Shown here one piece after another: positions 57,313 through 63,734 of a DNA stretch of 64,000 nt. The notes beneath the pieces were generated by a model. That model worked only from the letters and a program-made list of their open reading frames with translations, was not told the DNA's origin and did no database searches. Each line of letters opens with the position of its first letter. Positions within the stretch are counted from its first letter, which is position 1. Both the position numbers and the translations under genes were made by a program. The stretch comes from Prevotellaceae bacterium (GTDB lineage: Bacteria > Bacteroidota > Bacteroidia > Bacteroidales > UBA932), in contig JAISLK010000010.1 in NCBI GenBank assembly GCA_031290935.1, forward strand, positions 1,748-65,747, given 5' to 3'.

Positions 57313-57343
57313 CAAAAAAACCTCCACTGTTCGATGTGTGGAG
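57313..57343 (-). terminator. Displaced original terminator of tRNA-Leu (next to attL)
   Basis: Stem CTCCAC/GTGGAG with a U-tract on the minus strand. Homologous to the hairpin at 63581-63618. Confidence 0.5.
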
Positions 57344-57352
57344 ATTTTTGTA

Positions 57353-57371
57353 TTGTACCCGGGGCGGGAAT
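57353..57371. repeat. attL core TTGTACCCGGGGCGGGAAT (orphan copy of the tRNA-Leu 3' end)
   Basis: Identical to 63646-63664. Confidence 0.9.
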
Positions 57372-57463
57372 AAAAATACATCATTAACATATTCATTTTA
57401 AATTATTTTTATTTCCACAAGGTGTAAAAAAAGTGTAAAAACAACAAAATCATTCTTTGGCTT

Positions 57464-57571
57464 TTATATTGCCGTATCTTGTTTTGTCATTTTACGCTGG
57501 CTTGCATAACCCCAAATACCTGCTCCGATAGCAAACATGCCTACTCCGATGAATAAATAAATTAGCGCCAT
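57464..57571 (-). CDS. 35-aa single-TM peptide (not in the ORF track)
   Basis: Hand-translated as MALIYLFIGVGMFAIGAGIWGYASQRKMTKQDTAI. A hydrophobic helix followed by a basic tail. Confidence 0.3.
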   Translation of the reverse strand: MALIYLFIGVGMFAIGAGIWGYASQRKMTKQDTAI

Positions 57572-57580
57572 AATAGTATT

Positions 57581-57781
57581 TTATTTTGAGTTTCTTTTAT
57601 TGTTTTCTTTGTCTAACCAAATTAAGTATAACCCTATTGACATTGCCAACGCTGTTACCGTGCTTCCTACAGCAAATAGCAACGGCGCTGAAAGGTCTTG
57701 CCTCATCAAGCCTGCTAATATCACCCCTCCAAAAACTAATTTTGCAATATCAATAAGTATTTTACCAACTTCTTTTTTCAT
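57581..57781 (-). CDS. 66-aa two-TM small membrane protein
   Basis: Two hydrophobic segments and a charged C-terminus. A -7 box lies at 57786-57793. Confidence 0.45.
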   Translation of the reverse strand: MKKEVGKILIDIAKLVFGGVILAGLMRQDLSAPLLFAVGSTVTALAMSIGLYLIWLDKENNKRNSK

Positions 57782-58026
57782 AGCACAAAGGTAAGAAAAT
57801 TCTATTAAAAGAAAACAAAGATAAAAAAGTTTACATATAAGACAACGACAAACAGATTATATGTCTATTTGCCTAATTATATAATTATATTATTTGCAAA
57901 ATATTATATTTTATACTTTAATTTTACTGACGAATTAAATGAAAATTTCTGATAAATCAAGATGAATTTTCTTCCATTTTTCAAGTTTCCATTCCATAAT
58001 TCTTGAAAATAACCACATGCTGATTG

Positions 58027-58404
58027 TTATTCAACGTCGCTCCATAGCTGGTTACATCGTTTTTTTTCAGGTTCATTAAAACCTAACATTTTATTGATTA
58101 TTTCCAATGCTTTGATTTTAGCGTGGAGGTTCTCAGTATCGGCAAAACCTATCTTGGCAAGTTCCCCTAATACCCGCTCTTTGGTTATATCGGATTTGCT
58201 TTTTAACTCGGCTTGTAACCCCTCAACTCTTGCCCTAACCTTGCCCTTGCTTAGCAAATCAACCGCTTTCCGGTTTACCGTTTCCGACTTCATTTTATTT
58301 GCATCAAAAGCCCGCCGGTATGCCTCGCTGGCATTGCCCGTTTCTACATAAGCATTGCAAAAGGTTTCTTGCTTTGGTGTTATTTTTTTTGTATGTGTAT
58401 TCAT
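58027..58404 (-). CDS. Phage terminase small subunit-like protein (Terminase_2 type)
   Basis: ITPKQETFCNAYVETGNASEAYRRAF...AVDLLSKGKVRARVEGL resembles the N-terminal HTH signature of SF6-type TerS. 125 aa. Confidence 0.6.
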   Translation of the reverse strand: MNTHTKKITPKQETFCNAYVETGNASEAYRRAFDANKMKSETVNRKAVDLLSKGKVRARVEGLQAELKSKSDITKERVLGELAKIGFADTENLHAKIKALEIINKMLGFNEPEKKRCNQLWSDVE

Positions 58405-58527
58405 TTGTTAAAAAAAGTAGTATATTTGCATTACCATTCAATAATGGGATTTTTTGTTTTTTTTGTTAATTACAAAAATGTTTTTCCCATTTTTAGGGAC
58501 TCCGATAACTCATCATTCTTATTTTAA

Positions 58528-58572
58528 TTGTTACCAAAATTTGGTAATAGATTCACCTTATTATGTAGGGAA
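58528..58572. repeat. 45-bp direct repeat, copy 1 (contains the 17-bp palindrome TTACCAAAATTTGGTAA)
   Basis: Identical to 59519-59563. Confidence 0.95.
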
Positions 58573-58581
58573 CTTGACGCT

Positions 58582-59511
58582 CTAGCGTGCATACCTCGCT
58601 ATGGTAAAAATTGCCGTTTCCAACTCTTTAATCAAATCGCTTTTTTGACCCTCTGGAGCGGCTAATATTTTGTTTAGGTCGGCTTTTACACGACTGTAAT
58701 ATTTTCTATCATCAAACACGTTTTTTGCCTTTAATTCCGTCAAAAAATCATTTATGATATTTTTTTGCCCTGACTGCTGCAACAAATAAGCAAACAAGGC
58801 TGTTTGGGCTTCTTTAGGGGTTGTAATATTATCTGTCATAAAACTTGCATTTTTTATTTTCTGTATAGTCTTAAATTCATCGCACCAACTTTGAATAATA
58901 GAACGGTAAAAACTCACCTCGTACAACTTTATACCTGTTAAATTGGTATTTAATTGCTTATTGAGGCGTTTTGTATATTTTAATTCATACCTCAAAAGAT
59001 TAGTGTCTCGCCAAATATCCGGTATTTGTACACCTTTTGCCGTAGCTTCCCCGGCCTTGTCATAAAACACTATTTGCCGTTGGTGATTGGTGTAATACAA
59101 TGTTTCATCTTTGACAGCTTCCATTCGCTTAAAATGTGGCTTGCTTCCTAAATACCGATAATAATCGGCGGGCGGGCGTTTGGTAGGAATGACAGTTGAA
59201 ACGTCCAAACGTGTAACCCTTGCCCTGCTTACATCGGTGTGCAAAGTATCGCTTAATTTCTCTATCGTTTGTTTGGTGTCCTGCCGCGTCAAGGTATGCA
59301 GATTGTCGCCAAAGTAATTTTTTGCTAAACTGCCCCTCAATGATATTCCGTTTTCTGCAATATGTGCCAAATACCCGCCCGCTTTGCCGCTGCAGCTGTA
59401 ACCACGCGCGTTTTGCCGTTCTGTTATTTCAGATAAATAGGGTTGAACGTCAAAAGGACTTGCCCCCGACAACTCAACCCTATCAATCCAAAAATGCACT
59501 GTGTCAAACAT
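58582..59511 (-). CDS. Rolling-circle replication initiator-like protein (Rep_trans / phage CRI family)
   Basis: MFDTVHFWI start, VTRLDVS, IVFYDK and LLRYELKY motifs. Start trimmed to the M after repeat copy 2. Confidence 0.55.
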   Translation of the reverse strand: MFDTVHFWIDRVELSGASPFDVQPYLSEITERQNARGYSCSGKAGGYLAHIAENGISLRGSLAKNYFGDNLHTLTRQDTKQTIEKLSDTLHTDVSRARVTRLDVSTVIPTKRPPADYYRYLGSKPHFKRMEAVKDETLYYTNHQRQIVFYDKAGEATAKGVQIPDIWRDTNLLRYELKYTKRLNKQLNTNLTGIKLYEVSFYRSIIQSWCDEFKTIQKIKNASFMTDNITTPKEAQTALFAYLLQQSGQKNIINDFLTELKAKNVFDDRKYYSRVKADLNKILAAPEGQKSDLIKELETAIFTIARYAR

Positions 59512-59518
59512 ACTACAT

Positions 59519-59563
59519 TTGTTACCAAAATTTGGTAATAGATTCACCTTATTATGTAGGGAA
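59519..59563. repeat. 45-bp direct repeat, copy 2
   Basis: Identical to 58528-58572. Lies 8-52 nt upstream of the rep-like start. Confidence 0.95.
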
Positions 59564-59577
59564 ATTAGCCTTTGGAG

Positions 59578-60081
59578 TTATTCCCCTTTTGCCGACTTCC
59601 TCAACTCATCTAACGCCTCGTTTAACTGTCCGTCTGCTAACTCTGCAGCATACCCGCGTATCAACTGCCTGCCTTGTGGAACGATTAAAATTTCAATCGT
59701 ATTCAGGCCGGGTTCTACAACAAACAAATAACCGTCCGCCCGATTATCAAAGAATGGGTTTTGCTTGCCGCCTTTGAATTCTTTTGATTGTGGCGGCTCG
59801 CCGTATCCGATTAACGTTTCCCCGGGTTTCAAACCCTCAAAATAAATGCTGCTAAAATTTATATTGCCCTTGCACTGCAAACGTGTCTCCGCCGTTGAAT
59901 TTGGATTACATTTATCGTTCCGTTGGTAGTACATGACAATTTCATTTTTGGCGTTTTTAAGCGCTTCCAACGGCTTAAAATAACCTGCCTGTGCTGTTAC
60001 TGCATACCGGGGCGTTTTGCTTTCCGTCCCGTCTTTTTTGATGCTTTGCCGGCGCTCCATTTTTAGGTAACAACTAAACAT
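59578..60081 (-). CDS. Hypothetical protein (167 aa)
   Basis: ORF in an operon with the xis-like gene (8-nt overlap). No motif recognised. Confidence 0.45.
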   Translation of the reverse strand: MFSCYLKMERRQSIKKDGTESKTPRYAVTAQAGYFKPLEALKNAKNEIVMYYQRNDKCNPNSTAETRLQCKGNINFSSIYFEGLKPGETLIGYGEPPQSKEFKGGKQNPFFDNRADGYLFVVEPGLNTIEILIVPQGRQLIRGYAAELADGQLNEALDELRKSAKGE

Positions 60082-60376
60082 GGCTACCTCCTTTCTTGCC
60101 GGTTGAACAATACACGGCCGCCTTATTCTCTACCTCCTCGGTAGTGCTTACCCTGTTTTGTAATAACCACCGCTGCAATTCTGCACGGTCAAAATAAACC
60201 AGCTTGCCAGACGGCTTGCTGTGAGGTATCCTGTGCCCGGATGTCAACTTGTACAGGTAGCTTTTTGATAGCCCTGTAAATTGTGCTGCCTCCCCAAACG
60301 TCAACACCTCTTTTGTGGCAATACCTGCCATCTTAATGGAGTTTTCTAACTCCTCAACTTTTTTTTGTAATTCCAT
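60074..60376 (-). CDS. Helix-turn-helix (HTH_17/excisionase-type) DNA-binding protein
   Basis: LTFGEAAQFTGLSKSYLYKLTSGHRIPHSKP.GKLVYFDRAELQRWL. Confidence 0.7.
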   Translation of the reverse strand: MELQKKVEELENSIKMAGIATKEVLTFGEAAQFTGLSKSYLYKLTSGHRIPHSKPSGKLVYFDRAELQRWLLQNRVSTTEEVENKAAVYCSTGKKGGSHV

Positions 60377-60442
60377 TTTGAAATAAATTTTAATTATTAA
60401 AAAATGGTTTAGCTAAACCGATATTTATTGTTATAACATCGG

Positions 60443-60450
60443 CAAAGATA
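60443..60450 (-). promoter_or_regulatory. -7 box for the xis-rep operon
   Basis: CAAAGATA on the + strand, 67 nt upstream of the start at 60376. Confidence 0.45.
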
Positions 60451-60463
60451 GAGAGTATTGGAA

Positions 60464-60498
60464 AGAAAAAAGGGTTACAATGTGTTACTGTAACCCTT
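60464..60498 (-). terminator. Rho-independent terminator after the int-fic-orf293 unit
   Basis: 10-bp stem AAGGGTTACA/TGTAACCCTT with a U-tract on the minus strand. Confidence 0.7.
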
Positions 60499-60519
60499 AC
60501 TGTAAGTCGTTGTAAGTAT

Positions 60520-61401
60520 TTAGATGTGTTCTATTATATCATCTATTTCCCTGTATCCTTTTGGTCTGTGTTGAAAATCATGTTTATACTTGCTAACCGT
60601 GTTTTTCATCGTATCTTTATTTGGTGGCGTGCCTTTCCAAAGAAAAGTATTTACTGTTATTTCCCATAAATTAGCGCCGTCTGTGTCTGCAAAAAGGTTT
60701 TCAATGCAATAAGCAAGCAATCCTACTGATTTTTGCCAAATGAGAGGTTTAAACGGCTTTTCATTGTCCGGGATTGGTGTACCTCCAAACACATAATAAA
60801 AGTGGCTGCAAATCGTTTCTTTGGGCAAAAAGCCGCCGTTTACTAAACCGTCAAACAGTTTCTTTTGCTCATCGGTGGTAAAGGAGCGGGTGAAGTAGAG
60901 CGGGTTAAACTCATAGTTACGTTTTGTGGCTATTTTACTGTCTAAATATCTGAAAAAGCGGGCAATTTTACCCTTAATACGTTGTATATCTCCATCAGGT
61001 AAATATTCAAATATTGCCTCTGATTGTTTTACCCATTGTTCCTCTTTGGCTTTGTATGTACTATAAAATTCTTCTTCAAGGTTTCTTAAATCTGCATCGT
61101 CATCGTTTCTATGTTCATCACTATACATTTTCAATCTGATGAGTAAATATTCCTCATTGGTTGCTTGTACATCATTCCCCCAATGCTTTATAAGCCATCC
61201 CACAAAACCACAAGCCAATATAGGAAGCGCTCTAAGTTCTTCAGTGTGAGAATCTCCTATCAAATAATGTTTGGCAGTTTCATCTGTTTCTCTAAATCTG
61301 AGTAGGTAGTTATTATCCATATCCATAAAAAATCCAACCTTCCCATTTTTCCAATAAGTATGTACTTGACGAGCAATGTATTCTATTAAATCTCTTTTCA
61401 T
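60520..61401 (-). CDS. Hypothetical protein (293 aa)
   Basis: Long ORF 12 nt downstream of fic. No motif recognised. Confidence 0.5.
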   Translation of the reverse strand: MKRDLIEYIARQVHTYWKNGKVGFFMDMDNNYLLRFRETDETAKHYLIGDSHTEELRALPILACGFVGWLIKHWGNDVQATNEEYLLIRLKMYSDEHRNDDDADLRNLEEEFYSTYKAKEEQWVKQSEAIFEYLPDGDIQRIKGKIARFFRYLDSKIATKRNYEFNPLYFTRSFTTDEQKKLFDGLVNGGFLPKETICSHFYYVFGGTPIPDNEKPFKPLIWQKSVGLLAYCIENLFADTDGANLWEITVNTFLWKGTPPNKDTMKNTVSKYKHDFQHRPKGYREIDDIIEHI

Positions 61402-61412
61402 ATTTCAAAATT

Positions 61413-62186
61413 TTACTCTTTTACCCCCTCAACAACCCCCAAATACTTTTCCAAAGACTGTTTTACGGCGTTTGCCGTCAGCAAATAAAACGGCTCGTGG
61501 TTGTTATCTACATGGCTTTGTTCCAATGCCGTGTAATACGCCTGTTTTGCCTCGTTATCGGCTTTCAGTGAAGTTATCGTATAGCCCTTTGAAAACAGGT
61601 AGAAGTTCATCAAAAGGCGGCTTGTACGTCCGTTACCGTCAATAAACGGGTGTATCTTTACTAATTCATCGTGCAGATATGCTGCAATGATTACCGGGTG
61701 TGTGCCCTCCGTTTCCATTTGCCGGTATTGCAAAATAAAACTTTCCATTTGCAGCTTTATCAAATAGGGTTGAGGTGGAACGTACCGGCTGCCGACTATC
61801 ATCACGGGGACGGTTCTGTATTGCCCCGCCTGCTCCCGGTTGATGCCGTGCAGTATCAAAGCATGGATTTCCTTTATTGTCCGCTCGGTTATGTCTATAT
61901 CGTTGCTTGCCGTTTCTTTGATAAATTCAATGGCTTGGGCGTGGTTGATAGCCTCCAGATGTTCCCTCATCGTTTTGCCGCCGATGGTAACGCCTTCGCT
62001 CACTACCAATGCCGTTTCCTGCAAAGTCAGCGTATTTCCCTCAATCCGGTTGCTTTCATAGGTGTATTCTATTTCAAAAGCCGCTTTGATTTTGTTTAAC
62101 GCCTCCACGTTAAGCGGACGGGCTGCCTGCAAACGCGCTTTCAATTTGTCGGCTTCTACCAATGTGTTTTTTAGTTCCGTATTCAT
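61413..62186 (-). CDS. Fic/DOC family protein
   Basis: Canonical Fic motif HPFIDGNGRTSR. Confidence 0.9.
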   Translation of the reverse strand: MNTELKNTLVEADKLKARLQAARPLNVEALNKIKAAFEIEYTYESNRIEGNTLTLQETALVVSEGVTIGGKTMREHLEAINHAQAIEFIKETASNDIDITERTIKEIHALILHGINREQAGQYRTVPVMIVGSRYVPPQPYLIKLQMESFILQYRQMETEGTHPVIIAAYLHDELVKIHPFIDGNGRTSRLLMNFYLFSKGYTITSLKADNEAKQAYYTALEQSHVDNNHEPFYLLTANAVKQSLEKYLGVVEGVKE

Positions 62187-62199
62187 GTGCCTATAATTT

Positions 62200-63387
62200 C
62201 TAAAATTTTAAATTCAGCAGCGGCAAACTATTTATTGCCGCTTCTTTCAGGCTGTCCACTGCCCTTGTGTATTTCTCTGTGTGCTTTAATCCGGAGTGCC
62301 CCAAAAGGCTGGCAACGGTTTTTATGTTAGCCCCGTTGTTGAGTATGTTTACAGCAAAAGAATGACGGGCACAATGCCATGTTATATGCTTATCTATCCC
62401 GGCTCTTTTTGTCCAATGTCTCAATGCTCTCAAGCACATGGTAGCGCTCGGCAAGATAAATATACGTTCCTCTTTTGGATGGTCGGTAACAGGCTTTTTT
62501 ATTAAAGACAGCAAGCCGTCATTTAACGGAATTACAACGCCGCTTGCTGCGCTGTGTCCTTTTGTTTTGTCCTGCTCAAATTTTAATATCTTATTTTGAA
62601 AATCCACATTACCATACGTTAAATCTTTTACATCACAGAACCGGATACCAGTATACAGGCAAAATATAAACGCACGCCTTATATTATTGTTTTGCCCATT
62701 ATAAGTAGTCGCTATCAGTTGCTGTATTTCCCCAATACTTAAAATATCTTTCCTCAACGTTTGGGCATCCACTTTGCAAACGATACCGGCACATGGATTA
62801 GTGGTTAATACATCGTGCTCGACGGCGTATTTAATAACTTTTTTGAAACGCTTAAAACAGCCACAAGCGCCCTCTCCTGTACTCCGGCTTTTCAAATATT
62901 CAACAAAATTCAGCATCATTTCTTTGTTCAATTGTGATGGCTTTATGAATGTTTGGAATAATGGATAATTTGCAGCCAAAAAATCTTTAAACCGATTTAA
63001 CGCCTGTTTTATTACCCTGACATCTTTTTTTGTGTAATTATCTATGTAAGACTGGAAGTAATCTAAAAAATTCCCACTTTTTGCCTTTAACCTATACCCG
63101 TATATATCTTTTTTTAGTTCCTGCTCTTTTTCACGCCTGATAGCTTCTGCAAGCGCTAAGGTTTCCCTGTTTGTTTCTCTGTCGTCAGCTGTCCGTATGG
63201 GCTGTATTAAATATAAATTTAGGGTTTCTTTTTTTCTACTGTGTTTAATTTTTGTTTGGCCGGTGCACGTATCTACTTGTTTTGAATATCCTAAATAATA
63301 ATCCAGGTACAAACTAATACGCCCGTCGGCAAGTATATTTTGTGCTAATTTTGGATTTTGCTTGTATTTTTGTATTAATTTTGCCAT
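62200..63387 (-). CDS. Tyrosine-type site-specific integrase
   Basis: WHCARHSFA...LLGHSGLKHTEKYTRA catalytic region and an N-terminal arm-binding/SAM-like region typical of Bacteroidota integrases. Confidence 0.92.
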   Translation of the reverse strand: MAKLIQKYKQNPKLAQNILADGRISLYLDYYLGYSKQVDTCTGQTKIKHSRKKETLNLYLIQPIRTADDRETNRETLALAEAIRREKEQELKKDIYGYRLKAKSGNFLDYFQSYIDNYTKKDVRVIKQALNRFKDFLAANYPLFQTFIKPSQLNKEMMLNFVEYLKSRSTGEGACGCFKRFKKVIKYAVEHDVLTTNPCAGIVCKVDAQTLRKDILSIGEIQQLIATTYNGQNNNIRRAFIFCLYTGIRFCDVKDLTYGNVDFQNKILKFEQDKTKGHSAASGVVIPLNDGLLSLIKKPVTDHPKEERIFILPSATMCLRALRHWTKRAGIDKHITWHCARHSFAVNILNNGANIKTVASLLGHSGLKHTEKYTRAVDSLKEAAINSLPLLNLKF

Positions 63388-63580
63388 TTTGCCCTACTTT
63401 AGTTTTACAACCCGTACACAAAGGGTACACAACCCCATTTGTAAATAAATACCTGAATATCTTTTATTTTTTCTTTTGCTTTCTTTTCTTTGCAAAGGTA
63501 CAATTTTTTTTAATTCAATGTGTAAAAAAAGTGTAAAAAATAACAAAACAAGGGTAAAAACAGGAAAAACGGCACTCAAT

Positions 63581-63618
63581 AAAAAACCTCAACTGTTTGA
63601 ATTGTTGAGGTTTTTTTT
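63581..63618 (-). terminator. Island-borne terminator now serving tRNA-Leu
   Basis: Stem CCTCAAC/GTTGAGG flanked by an A run and a T run. Confidence 0.6.
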
Positions 63619-63645
63619 CTTTTAGTTTCCCTTATTTTCAGAGGT

Positions 63646-63664
63646 TTGTACCCGGGGCGGGAAT
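63646..63664. repeat. attR core TTGTACCCGGGGCGGGAAT (inside the tRNA-Leu 3' end)
   Basis: Identical to 57353-57371. Confidence 0.9.
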
Positions 63665-63734
63665 TGAACCCGCACGGACATTACTGCCCACAGGATTTTA
63701 AGTCCTGCGTGTCTACCTATTCCACCACCCGGGC
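63649..63734 (-). tRNA. tRNA-Leu (anticodon TAA), long variable arm
   Basis: Acceptor GCCCGGG/CCCGGGT, anticodon stem CAGGA/TCCTG with loop CTTAAAA, T arm GCGGG-TTCAATT-CCCGC. Confidence 0.9.

Follow-up and report, generated by a model that had tools for sequence, protein, structure and literature searches.

The window analysed here, a 64-kb stretch of a termite-gut Prevotellaceae genome, contains a 6.3-kb mobile island within the 3′ end of a tRNA-Leu(TAA) gene. Its features, in window coordinates, are:

57314–57349, minus strand: chromosomal terminator hairpin (z = −3.8), just outside attL, originally downstream of tRNA-Leu
57353–57371, unstranded: attL core, the distal copy of a 19-bp direct repeat and a duplicate of the tRNA-Leu 3′ end
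57405–57452, unstranded: A-rich repeat near attL matching that near attR, a candidate arm-type site for the opposite flank of attP
57464–57571, minus strand: hydrophobic 35-aa peptide from the ORF list, transmembrane with a basic tail, accessory
57581–57781, minus strand: DUF6722 small membrane protein, 66 aa, accessory (PF20482, E = 2.1e-11)
57981–58404, minus strand: Terminase_2-type small terminase (TerS) gene, frameshifted as assembled; the repaired product would be 141 aa
58528–58572, minus strand: second copy of the origin-like motif, on the downstream side of rep, the same 45 bp as copy 1
58582–59511, minus strand: rolling-circle replication initiator (Rep), Phage_CRI (filamentous-phage gene II protein, pII-type), 309 aa (PF05144, E = 2.6e-16)
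59519–59563, minus strand: origin-like motif copy 1, upstream of rep, an ATA(G/A)TAAG box and then the palindrome TTACCAAATTTTGGTAA
59578–60081, minus strand: orf167, a family-specific core protein of 167 aa, present in 70 of 87 loci
60074–60376, minus strand: HTH_17 / AlpA-type / excisionase-type DNA-binding protein, 100 aa (PF12728, E = 3.6e-12; TIGR01764, 41.7 bits)
60470–60498, minus strand: intrinsic terminator after orf293, 12-bp stem and T run (z = −3.3)
60520–61401, minus strand: orf293, 293 aa, a mosaic gene (by sequence comparison) after the integrase module
61413–62186, minus strand: Fic-domain protein, accessory cargo (PF02661, E = 3e-23)
62200–63387, minus strand: tyrosine integrase, 395 aa (PF00589, E = 1.2e-24; PF13102; PF17293; phrog_1)
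63524–63568, unstranded: two adjacent copies of the A-rich repeat AAAAAAAGTGTAAAAA... near attR, candidate integrase arm-type sites
63581–63617, minus strand: island-borne terminator hairpin (z = −4.1), now following the rebuilt tRNA
63646–63664, unstranded: attR core, overlapping the 3′ end of the intact tRNA-Leu
63648–63734, minus strand: tRNA-Leu(TAA) (ARAGORN), the integration target, its 3′ end rebuilt by the island

The 19-bp repeat TTGTACCCGGGGCGGGAAT has just two occurrences in the window, one at each island end, with ~0.007 identical 19-mer pairs expected by chance in 64 kb. ARAGORN places the tRNA-Leu on the minus strand across the right copy, which is therefore the tRNA 3′ end, as the initial annotation had proposed; the integrase that it had placed beside the tRNA was likewise recovered. 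The integrase combines Phage_integrase, SAM_5 and Arm-DNA-bind_5 domains, and since it has the last of these we regard the A-rich repeats as candidate arm-type sites. The hairpins at the junctions, described earlier as related but non-identical terminators, are indeed 83% identical over 35 nt (57315–57349 versus 63581–63615), and both are strong folds followed by T runs. The impression of co-oriented ORFs in DNA more AT-rich than the flanks was also correct: all nine island ORFs lie on the minus strand, and island GC is 38.1% versus 50.0% in the remaining window, the lowest value for any other 6.3-kb sliding window being 39.8%.

The terminator at 60470–60498 divides the island into two units, int-fic-orf293 and HTH_17-orf167-rep-terS. 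The fic gene is present in only 3 of 87 related loci and in the near-twin island L106. Profile searches gave no family match for orf293; over its N-terminal part it shares 32% identity with the gene after the integrase in a primase-type island (L088), and over its C-terminal part 67% with the L004 gene. In the second unit, the HTH_17 protein also matches PF05930 (Phage_AlpA) at 23.3 bits (cutoff 21), and its gene is kept in 66 of the 87 loci. For orf167 we retrieved 142 homologues, none with a Pfam domain on record, and its AlphaFold2 model (pLDDT 78.6) has no fold match in the PDB. Of the 87 relatives, one has DUF6722; in L106 the gene again neighbours terS and adjoins a 34-aa counterpart of the 35-aa peptide. 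Profile searches of the island matched no capsid, portal, TerL, tail, lysis, relaxase or T4CP family. The gene content first read from the letters, namely Fic, an excisionase-like HTH_17 protein, unknown 293-aa and 167-aa proteins, a terminator after the former, two tiny transmembrane proteins and no virion or conjugation genes, is thus upheld by Pfam, PHROG and TIGRFAM-type matches and by the terminator's 12-bp stem and T run.

Rep scores 60.5 bits against PF05144 (cutoff 21.7) and has no match to Rep_trans (PF02486) at E ≤ 1; of the suggested Rep_trans/CRI-like initiator, the CRI part stands and the Rep_trans part does not. Rep has 261 homologues; 50,697 phage records contained no relative of it, and the phage records and long phage contigs searched had neither Rep nor orf167. 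In 72 loci the origin-like motif adjoins rep and shares its strand; it is absent from non-Rep islands and from the phage contigs examined. Its palindrome covaries, with eight of eight pairs changed on both sides and a covariation score of 0.272 versus 0.118 for shuffles (none of 500 shuffles reached 0.272). The layout is that of the f1/M13 origin, with an ATAGT box and, ~10 nt further on, a palindrome, as the M13 sequence TTTAATAGTGGACTCTTGTTCCAAACTGGAACA shows, and Rep probably nicks at the conserved ATA(G/A)TAAG box. Unlike the f1/M13 module, the island has no other inovirus genes, its Rep is only remotely similar in sequence to pII, and two origin copies flank rep.

The gene II-family Rep and the M13-like origin would also suit a satellite or remnant of a filamentous (inovirus-like) ssDNA phage, with Rep making single-stranded circles from the f1-like origin and these being extruded via the morphogenesis proteins of a helper inovirus. 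The tiny membrane proteins would then be coat-like; those of 35 and 66 aa both have a hydrophobic core and a basic tail, and Vibrio harbours satellite filamentous elements whose initiators are of Cri type. However, a pI/Zot ATPase, a secretin and any recognisable coat family were all missing from the profile matches of the island, its small membrane proteins are cargo that few relatives share, and the gene that recurs after rep encodes a tailed-phage terminase-type protein. Together with the lack of phage relatives of Rep, and with a tyrosine integrase and arm sites at a tRNA rather than XerCD/dif, this makes a filamentous origin very unlikely.

TerS matches Terminase_2 (PF03592) at E = 4.2e-18, passing the Pfam gathering score, and phrog_51 at E = 3.4e-23, and its profile matches the solved SF6 small terminase 3ZQP (E = 3e-6). 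Matches extend to 195 annotated phage records; in one phage contig a 50%-identical homologue of the same length class is the gene immediately before those for TerL, portal, protease and capsid, and no phage TerS closer than ~60% identity was found. Judging by these matches, the gene is a genuine Terminase_2 small terminase, as the initial annotation had supposed, rather than a mere HTH regulator. As assembled, its ORF (58027–58404) ends early owing to one extra nucleotide in a T8 run (58060–58067), and the conserved C-terminal tail is encoded in a different frame that runs to 57981; because of this frameshift the island copy may be impaired. The TerS cluster to which it belongs (68–87% identity) was found in small islands without structural genes in all eight contexts examined: four are Rep-type (the window, L093, L094 and L106) and four (L088, L090, L092 and L096) have D5/VapE primase-helicase or AAA_25 with DUF6371 modules. 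Pairwise dN/dS values of 0.08–0.2 indicate that the island terS genes are under purifying selection.

Comparison of more than 85 loci revealed a family of tRNA-integrating islands in Bacteroidales, 5–7.6 kb in size (5.05–7.6 kb measured), with a core of int, HTH_17, orf167 and Rep and with bounding repeats that copy the 3′ end of a tRNA-Leu (taa or caa), a tRNA-Met or a tRNA-Val. The compact architecture, gene order and intact att repeats recur in dozens of divergent loci (Rep identity 34–80%), and the core genes are evidently under purifying selection. These observations argue against a decayed prophage in which integrase, replication gene and terS were retained by chance, as does the absence of Rep and orf167 from the phage records and long phage contigs searched. 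The frameshift in terS would fit such a remnant, as would one relative, L032, with TerS, TerL and a head-morphogenesis gene, but we consider it the most improbable of the explanations weighed here.

Among Rep-defined family loci with at least 450 bp after rep (n = 62), 37 (~60%) carry a small-terminase-type gene there: 34 are DUF5681-like, one is the short Terminase_2 gene of the window, one is the full-length TerS of L032, followed by TerL, and one (L074) matches phrog_7344 terS. At least three unrelated families of this type use the slot, with no co-occurrence in one island. Rather than being universal in the family, terS appears to be one of several interchangeable small-terminase-type genes. 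The DUF5681 proteins are putative small terminases, assigned from gene position alone: their phage homologues overlap TerL in three records, and the position argument fails in two Bacteroides temperate phages.

The island could alternatively be an integrative rolling-circle element that is moved by conjugation (an IME) or is immobile, with Rep doubling as a relaxase at the origin-like site and the terminase-type genes being anti-packaging defence cargo or HTH regulators rather than serving island transfer. Rolling-circle initiators and relaxases are mechanistically related, and the Bacteroides element NBU1 reportedly integrates, like the island, at the 3′ end of tRNA-Leu. NBUs are likewise small integrated Bacteroidales elements needing a helper for transfer, and NBU1-like elements are mobilised by conjugative helpers (review PMC11389934). 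Defence-like genes (Fic, HsdR, an MmeI-type methyltransferase domain) are also among the cargo of the islands, and no circular or encapsidated form was seen in the 87 related contigs checked, none of which had terminal overlap or permuted gene order. However, NBUs carry a Mob relaxase and oriT, whereas no relaxase, T4CP, oriT-type or other conjugation gene was found in the island or in 74 representative accessory ORFs from its relatives, and the island has a terminase-type gene in place of Mob. Furthermore, the family matched by Rep is PF05144 rather than the relaxase-linked PF02486, primase-type islands lacking any nickase carry the same TerS, and three mutually exclusive, unrelated terminase-type families in one slot fit a helper-specificity cassette better than random cargo. 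We consider this alternative, whether as an IME or as an immobile element, unlikely.

On balance, the island is probably a minimal PICI/PICMI/VEIME-like satellite of tailed phages, with rolling-circle replication, in a Bacteroidales (Prevotellaceae) chromosome. It has genes for excision, rolling-circle copying and a packaging subunit but none for a virus shell, and a helper phage is therefore its most likely means of spread. Gene content and comparison suggest the following life cycle. The quiescent island would sit in the tRNA-Leu 3′ end, supplying a replacement tRNA end and terminator, until a signal, presumably a helper phage, switches on the HTH_17-orf167-rep-terS unit. Integrase and the HTH_17 (AlpA/Xis-type) protein would excise it as a circle, and Rep would nick the f1-like origin beside rep for rolling-circle amplification. 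The island TerS, or the equivalent small-terminase-type protein in relatives, would then bind island DNA and bring in the large terminase of the helper, helper capsids would be filled with multimers of the 6.3-kb unit, and after injection the recircularised element would integrate at tRNA-Leu.

Several points count against the satellite reading. The pII-type initiators normally release unit-length single-stranded circles, and terminases need double-stranded concatemers. With two direct origin copies, the circle should split into two parts. In ~40% of family members no recognisable terminase-type gene follows rep. No helper phage was identified, the remaining window being ordinary chromosome, and the closest phage TerS reaches only ~60% identity. 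The related contigs gave no sign of excised, circular or packaged forms, and the DUF5681 assignment by gene position is a further weak point. For this copy, the terS frameshift counts against the reading as well.

PICIs (SaPIs, EcCICFT073-type) share with the island a terminal site-specific integrase, a replication and packaging unit that begins with an AlpA/HTH_17-type regulator, an autonomous replication module, their own terS, absence of tail and lysis genes, and accessory genes between int and regulator and after terS (layout in PMC10085698). Unlike PICIs, the island uses a pII-type rolling-circle initiator instead of a primase-replicase, lacks a capsid-morphogenesis gene, has all genes co-oriented, is half or less of the usual size, and resides in Bacteroidota, whereas Proteobacteria and Firmicutes account for >99.9% of detected PICIs. 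Because primase-replicase and capsid morphogenesis, two of the five core components, are missing, the element is not a PICI, though PICI-like in logic. The satellite proposal of the initial annotation thus gained comparative support and survived the refutation tests run, while its appeal to a defining PICI layout failed.

PICMIs, the minimalist islands of Vibrionaceae, are closer in size (~6 kb) and minimal gene set, with int, AlpA and accessory or defence-like cargo, but have a primase and no terS and integrate next to fis (PMC10803314), in contrast to the Rep, terS and tRNA-Leu site seen here. The 6.1-kb PICMI115, without capsid-remodelling genes, travels as 8-mers inside helper capsids of full size (PMC10803314); since the island also lacks capsid remodelling, packaging as multimers in full-size capsids would be expected. 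Marine VEIMEs are likewise small and integrative, encode tyrosine integrases and homologues of AlpA and TerS but no capsid genes, and occur as concatemers, consistent with rolling-circle replication (PMC9618062). They differ in that primase/helicases, rather than pII-type initiators, are described for their replication (PMC9618062), and in being defined by presence inside virions, the island being known from sequence. Some VEIMEs are integrated in Flavobacteria, members of Bacteroidota (PMC9618062), contrary to the earlier statement that such satellites were undescribed in this phylum.

The window contains exactly two copies of the 19-bp sequence TTGTACCCGGGGCGGGAAT, at 57353-57371 and 63646-63664; chance alone would give ~0.007 identical 19-mer pairs in 64 kb. 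ARAGORN placed a tRNA-Leu(taa) gene at 63648-63734 on the minus strand and the right copy is therefore the 3′ end of this gene, bearing out the initial annotation, which had seen an intact tRNA-Leu end in it. The related but non-identical terminator hairpins described at the two junctions were also recovered: 57315-57349 and 63581-63615 are 83% identical over 35 nt, and in both a T run comes directly after a stem of 12-13 bp (z = -3.8 on the left and -4.1 on the right). The left hairpin is the chromosomal terminator that formerly stood behind tRNA-Leu, while the right one is island-borne and now stands behind the rebuilt tRNA. Between the repeats lie 6274 bp (57372-63645) with a GC content of 38.1%, compared to 50.0% for the remaining window and 39.8% for the lowest-GC 6.3-kb sliding window elsewhere; all nine island ORFs are on the minus strand, so that the co-orientation and AT-richness noted by eye both hold. 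An A-rich repeat (AAAAAAAGTGTAAAAA...) is found just inside both island ends (57405-57452 and 63524-63568). Since the integrase has an arm-binding domain and the repeats lie near both ends, we read them as candidate arm-type sites around attP. An exact-protein lookup with the flanking thioredoxin-like gene, aimed at an empty attB, returned no other contig.

The island contains the following features, listed in the direction of transcription.

62200-63387, minus strand: tyrosine integrase (PF00589, E = 1.2e-24; PF13102; PF17293; phrog_1, E = 1.9e-40)
61413-62186, minus strand: Fic protein (PF02661)
60520-61401, minus strand: orf293, no family match
60470-60498, minus strand: terminator with a 12-bp stem
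60074-60376, minus strand: HTH_17 protein (PF12728, E = 3.6e-12; PF05930 Phage_AlpA; TIGR01764, excisionase-type)
59578-60081, minus strand: orf167, no family match
58582-59511, minus strand: rolling-circle replication initiator, Rep (PF05144 Phage_CRI, E = 2.6e-16)
58027-58404, minus strand: small terminase ORF (PF03592, E = 4.2e-18; phrog_51, E = 3.4e-23)
57581-57781, minus strand: DUF6722 membrane protein (PF20482)
57464-57571, minus strand: 35-aa hydrophobic peptide (from the ORF list)

Family searches agreed with the initial annotation on the integrase, the Fic and HTH_17 proteins, the 293-aa and 167-aa proteins without assigned family, the small terminase (TerS) and the two small membrane proteins. 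They agreed equally on what the island lacks: no capsid, portal, large terminase, tail, lysis, relaxase, coupling-protein or mating-pore family matched in it, nor did any head or morphogenesis family in Pfam or PHROGs match an island ORF, orf293 and orf167 being left without a family. The terminator at 60470-60498 divides the genes into two units, int-fic-orf293 ahead of it and one headed by the HTH_17 gene behind it. The HTH_17 protein scores 23.3 bits against Phage_AlpA (PF05930, cutoff 21) and probably acts as a regulator. The other 42 ORFs of the window are chromosomal (e.g. gliding and type IX secretion genes, gyrB and IMPDH), and no helper prophage was found within the window. A Sigma-70 promoter scan, which is uninformative for Bacteroidota, gave fewer matches than shuffled sequence. 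For orf167 we found no match in Pfam, PHROGs or NCBIfam, no PDB sequence match, and no meaningful Foldseek match (TM < 0.3) to its AlphaFold2 model (pLDDT 78.6).

We next turn to the small terminase. The ORF scores 66.8 bits against PF03592 (cutoff 26.1) and is not merely a generic HTH protein. A profile of TerS and its relatives matched the SF6 small terminase (3ZQP, E = 3e-6), with profile positions 1-116 aligning to SF6 TerS residues 20-152, that is, to the DNA-binding domain and the oligomerisation helices. TerS matched in 195 phage records, and most of the top matches listed are annotated as small terminase. The homologue P0188 (50% identity, same short type) lies directly before a large terminase gene (TerL; Terminase_3, contig L101), followed by portal, S78 protease and HK97 capsid genes. 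Of the long-type homologues the nearest is P0147 (contig L105), which lies directly before a 624-aa ORF that has no Pfam match on record and is presumed to be TerL; this module also goes on with portal, protease and capsid genes. A ~50-aa insertion present in many phage TerS proteins is missing from the island copies and from the phage protein P0188 too. Judged by these sequence comparisons, the window terS is a genuine Terminase_2 small terminase. As assembled, however, the gene is frameshifted: the alignment shows that the window protein lacks the conserved C-terminal tail (...VTTGGATLNNNQHVVIFKNYG...), which is encoded intact in another frame ending at 57981. Compared with its homologues, terS (57981-58404) has a surplus base in a T8 run at 58060-58067, which shifts the frame; at this homopolymer the coding strand of two homologous island genes reads A7 (L088) and A8 followed by G (L090), both in frame. 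Removal of one base from the window gene yields a 141-aa protein that matches its homologues. An assembly error, a very recent inactivating mutation or homopolymer slippage at an on/off site could each account for the frameshift.

Rep scores 60.5 bits against PF05144 (cutoff 21.7; profile positions 64-224 of 232) and has no match to PF02486 at E ≤ 1; of the initial 'Rep_trans/CRI-like' assignment, the Phage_CRI half stands and the Rep_trans half does not. A search of 50,697 phage records found no relative of Rep, and plasmids yielded a single remote match; we therefore dropped the readings of the island as a free plasmid or a known phage. Rep matched no solved structure, and the alignment of its profile with a pII sequence was not significant.

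A 45-bp exact direct repeat flanks rep (58528-58572 and 59519-59563), and its two copies belong to a motif found throughout the Rep family: a conserved ATA(G/A)TAAG box with a palindrome ~10 nt behind it, for example TTACCAAATTTTGGTAA, GTAACAGAAAACTTGTAAC, GTTGCCAAAAATGGAAAC or TTGACAATTTTTGTCAA. A profile search found this motif at 72 Rep loci, on the rep strand except for weak palindromic echoes, and directly adjoining rep in all of them except L043 and L075. Roughly 20 loci have the motif upstream of rep only, ~25 have it downstream only, and in ~18 it flanks the gene. The primase-type islands and phage contigs examined lack it. The palindrome arms covary, with changes on both sides at eight of eight pairs and a covariation score of 0.272 compared to 0.118 for shuffled alignments (0 of 500 shuffles reach 0.272; slid controls 0.07-0.13). 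Folding of the palindrome is only weakly favoured over shuffles (z = -1.0 and -1.7), and we set aside the idea of a stable hairpin; we read the covariation as either a protein-binding dyad or an extruded hairpin. In the M13 plus-strand origin (TTCTTTAATAGTGGACTCTTGTTCCAAACTGGAACA) a palindrome likewise comes after an ATAGT box; gene II protein nicks in this box and binds the repeats. We conclude that the motif adjoining rep is a putative double-strand origin for the pII-type Rep, which would nick in its box. In f1, two direct origins resolve one circle into two, and pII-type initiators normally yield unit-length single-stranded circles; two direct origin copies served by such an initiator should split the island circle in two, one of 991 nt with rep alone and one of 5.3 kb lacking it. 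The two exceptional loci carry their origin-like copies ~2 kb upstream of rep, between int and the HTH_17 gene: three within ~460 bp in L043 (5243-5706) and a single one in L075 (2770-2809).

The Rep and origin types, together with the small membrane proteins, could point to a satellite or remnant of a filamentous phage. We regard this as very improbable, since family searches including PHROGs found neither inovirus pI/Zot nor coat-protein families among the island ORFs, in which the island differs from inovirus satellites, Rep has no kin in the phage collection, and the genes that follow rep are terminase genes of tailed-phage type.

The protein collection holds 261 Rep homologues, and we examined 87 loci (Rep identity 34-80%) from termite gut, rumen, digesters and freshwater, and a few more besides. 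The conserved gene order is int, one or more variable genes, HTH_17, orf167 and rep; int was found in 53, HTH_17 in 66 and orf167 in 70 of the 87 loci, many contigs being too short to hold all of them. Conservation of orf167 is at least equal to that of Rep, and the gene is confined to this Rep-type family. At loci that include the tRNA, 12-25-bp repeats of its 3′ end bound the island, the targets being tRNA-Leu(taa or caa), tRNA-Met and tRNA-Val. The islands measure 5.05-7.6 kb, with one exception of 11 kb, and the integrase may lie at either end relative to the tRNA. The relatives are bulk-metagenome contigs, the two from IMG/VR being predictions rather than particle-derived; among the 87 contigs we found no terminal overlap indicative of a circular form, and int is always upstream of rep, with no permuted order.

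We compared the position behind rep across those non-redundant Rep loci, 62 in number, whose sequence continues for at least 450 bp beyond the gene. In 33 of them, including L008, L009, L014, L017 and L042, it is occupied directly after rep and on the same strand by a ~95-aa protein of a single family (consensus MSRKKGTxKTGGRxKGTPNKVT...LEPKxRL...LPK), 7 of 20 members of which match Pfam DUF5681. Another locus (L083) has a different DUF5681 protein here, L074 a protein matching four PHROG terS families (phrog_7344, E = 8e-12), L032 a full-length Terminase_2 TerS with TerL (phrog_38, E = 4e-97) and an SPP1 gp7-like head-morphogenesis protein behind it, and the window its short Terminase_2 TerS. 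Overall, 37 of the 62 loci (~60%) carry a terminase-type gene in this slot and none carries two types together; in the other ~40% no terminase-type gene could be recognised behind rep. In three phages (MW202710.1, hhalign probability 97.5%, E = 7e-12; MW202462.1; and Rhizobium phage RHph_N3_2) a DUF5681-like homologue lies just upstream of, and overlaps, the large terminase gene, while two temperate phages of Bacteroides have it next to the integrase. These placements make a small terminase, or a packaging-redirecting protein, a suggestive but unsettled reading of the DUF5681-like protein; the comparison gives an uncharacterised family a testable function. We rejected distant kinship between it and the window TerS (hhalign probability 0.7%). 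In L032 (5152-8435; identical to L087, IMG/VR UViG_3300002504_000076) reverse-strand genes, an ORF6N antirepressor among them, come after the TerS-TerL-gp7-like genes; the island may have taken up a piece of a packaging module, or it may sit next to a prophage.

The window type of TerS is not confined to Rep-type islands. The 20 closest homologues (68-87% identity, 134-169 aa) all come from termite-gut samples, and the genomic context of seven of these was a small island in every case. Three islands with this TerS (L093, L094 and L106) are of the Rep type, L106 being a near-twin of the window island with Fic, a 334-aa gene, HTH_17, Rep, TerS, a 34-aa peptide and DUF6722. Others, from termite-gut Bacteroidales and with a TerS 68-84% identical to that of the window, replicate differently: L088 (104-7431) and L096 encode int, a 388-aa gene, HTH_17, a 108-aa gene, a D5_N/VapE primase-helicase, a DUF6371/Zn-ribbon protein and TerS, L090 has the same layout as far as its partial contig shows, and in L092 (3526-10447) an AAA_25 helicase replaces the primase-helicase. 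These primase-type islands are closer to the classical PICI layout than the window island is. TerS is the last or next-to-last gene in every island context examined, and pairwise dN/dS between island terS genes is 0.08-0.2. With islands of three unrelated replication systems carrying it, this low dN/dS indicates one packaging gene kept under selection, as a hijacking function would predict but a decaying leftover would not. A decayed prophage is also a very improbable source of the window island, given the purifying selection and the recurrence of the same compact architecture at dozens of divergent loci.

The N-terminal part of orf293 is also shared with a primase-type island. The protein is a mosaic, with residues 17-153 being 32% identical to the post-integrase gene of the primase-type island L088 and residues 167-290 being 67% identical to that of the Rep-type island L004; a related gene follows int in ~32 relatives. 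The 34/35-aa peptide and DUF6722 pair lies beside terS in both L106 (5118-5406) and the window (57464-57781) and is inverted between them, which suggests a small mobile two-gene cassette of membrane proteins.

PICIs are defined by five core components: integrase, regulator (alpA/merR/stl), primase-replicase, capsid morphogenesis and small terminase (PMC10085698). The initial annotation had assigned a PICI-type layout. By the published list, the integrase, the AlpA/HTH_17-type regulator and the small terminase (frameshifted as assembled) are present, and the accessory genes occupy the same places as in PICIs; however, the sole replication gene is the Phage_CRI initiator rather than a primase-replicase, and no capsid-morphogenesis gene was found with Pfam or PHROGs. 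The window island would work like a PICI, yet is not filed as one because these two of the five core components are missing. It resembles PICMIs in its small size and minimal gene set. Unlike PICMIs, which have int, alpA and primase as their core, integrate next to fis and lack terS (PMC10803314), it has no primase, sits in tRNA-Leu and carries terS. It shares its gene logic with marine VEIMEs, which occur as concatemers and are in some cases integrated in Flavobacteria (PMC9618062); VEIMEs are defined by recovery from virions, whereas the sequences compared here are bulk-metagenome contigs. The VEIMEs of Flavobacteria also qualify the earlier statement that satellites had not been described in Bacteroidota, which stands in narrower form: our literature searches found no specific description for Bacteroidales or Bacteroides, and a large satellite census, with >99.9% of its PICIs in Proteobacteria or Firmicutes, never mentions Bacteroidota.

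Alternatively, the island could be an integrative rolling-circle element that is moved by conjugation or immobile, with Rep perhaps acting as a relaxase and the terminase-type genes serving as anti-phage cargo or regulators. Relatives do carry varied cargo (HTH_3 regulators, Fic, WYL_2, a deaminase, an MmeI-type methyltransferase domain, Bro-N and a type I restriction subunit). Nevertheless we consider this unlikely: the island has no Mob or T4CP genes, whereas mobilisable elements of the NBU class bring their own Mob relaxase and oriT; primase-type islands with the same TerS have no nickase; and the cassette types in the slot are mutually exclusive. Among the matches listed for 74 representative accessory ORFs of relatives (the first 25 of 32), none was to a relaxase, coupling-protein or mating-pore family.

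Taken together, the evidence tips modestly towards the window island being a minimal satellite of tailed phages, in partial support of the satellite interpretation in the initial annotation. Several findings count against it: pII-type initiators normally make unit-length single-stranded circles, two origin copies flank rep, terS is frameshifted, no circular form was seen among the contigs, no helper lies in the window, and ~40% of the relatives lack a recognisable terminase-type gene in the slot. The pattern seen across relatives is nonetheless strong and offers direct handles for experiments. The group is best described as a candidate Bacteroidales phage satellite family that combines a filamentous-phage-type rolling-circle replicon with a swappable small-terminase cassette. 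In the satellite life cycle that we infer beyond integration, a helper phage would activate the HTH_17 unit, Int and the HTH_17 protein would excise the island, Rep would nick the putative origin and amplify the island by rolling circle, the island TerS would recruit the helper TerL for headful packaging of island multimers, and the island would reintegrate at tRNA-Leu. The multimer step has precedent in the 6.1-kb PICMI115, which is packaged as 8-mers in full-size helper capsids without remodelling genes (PMC10803314), and in VEIME concatemers (PMC9618062). More tentatively, and with slightly less than even confidence, we propose an undescribed Bacteroidota satellite class of 5-7.6-kb tRNA-integrating islands with a pII module and f1-like origin, in which the swappable cassette (at least three unrelated TerS-type families, one common to primase-type islands of the same habitat) sets the tailed helper and multimers are packaged without capsid remodelling.

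Bacteroidales dominate many gut ecosystems, and satellites there would fill a taxonomic gap. If the proposal is correct, tailed-phage satellites can run on a replication module of filamentous-phage type, the islands offer a route by which Fic, restriction, deaminase and other cargo genes pass among gut Bacteroidales, and int, HTH_17, orf167, pII-type Rep, the origin motif and a TerS-type cassette form a marker set for gut metagenomes. The interchangeable small-terminase slot points to simple helper switching.

Two further loci stand apart within the family. One Dysgonamonadaceae contig encodes two diverged Rep homologues six genes apart (P0031 and P0098; LBF08_05070 and LBF08_05100), which may represent tandem islands at one attachment site. 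The other, L001 (BNVH01000087.1), is labelled Synergistales bacterium and is a typical member (Rep identity 74%) of an otherwise Bacteroidales family, reflecting either mis-binning or cross-phylum transfer.
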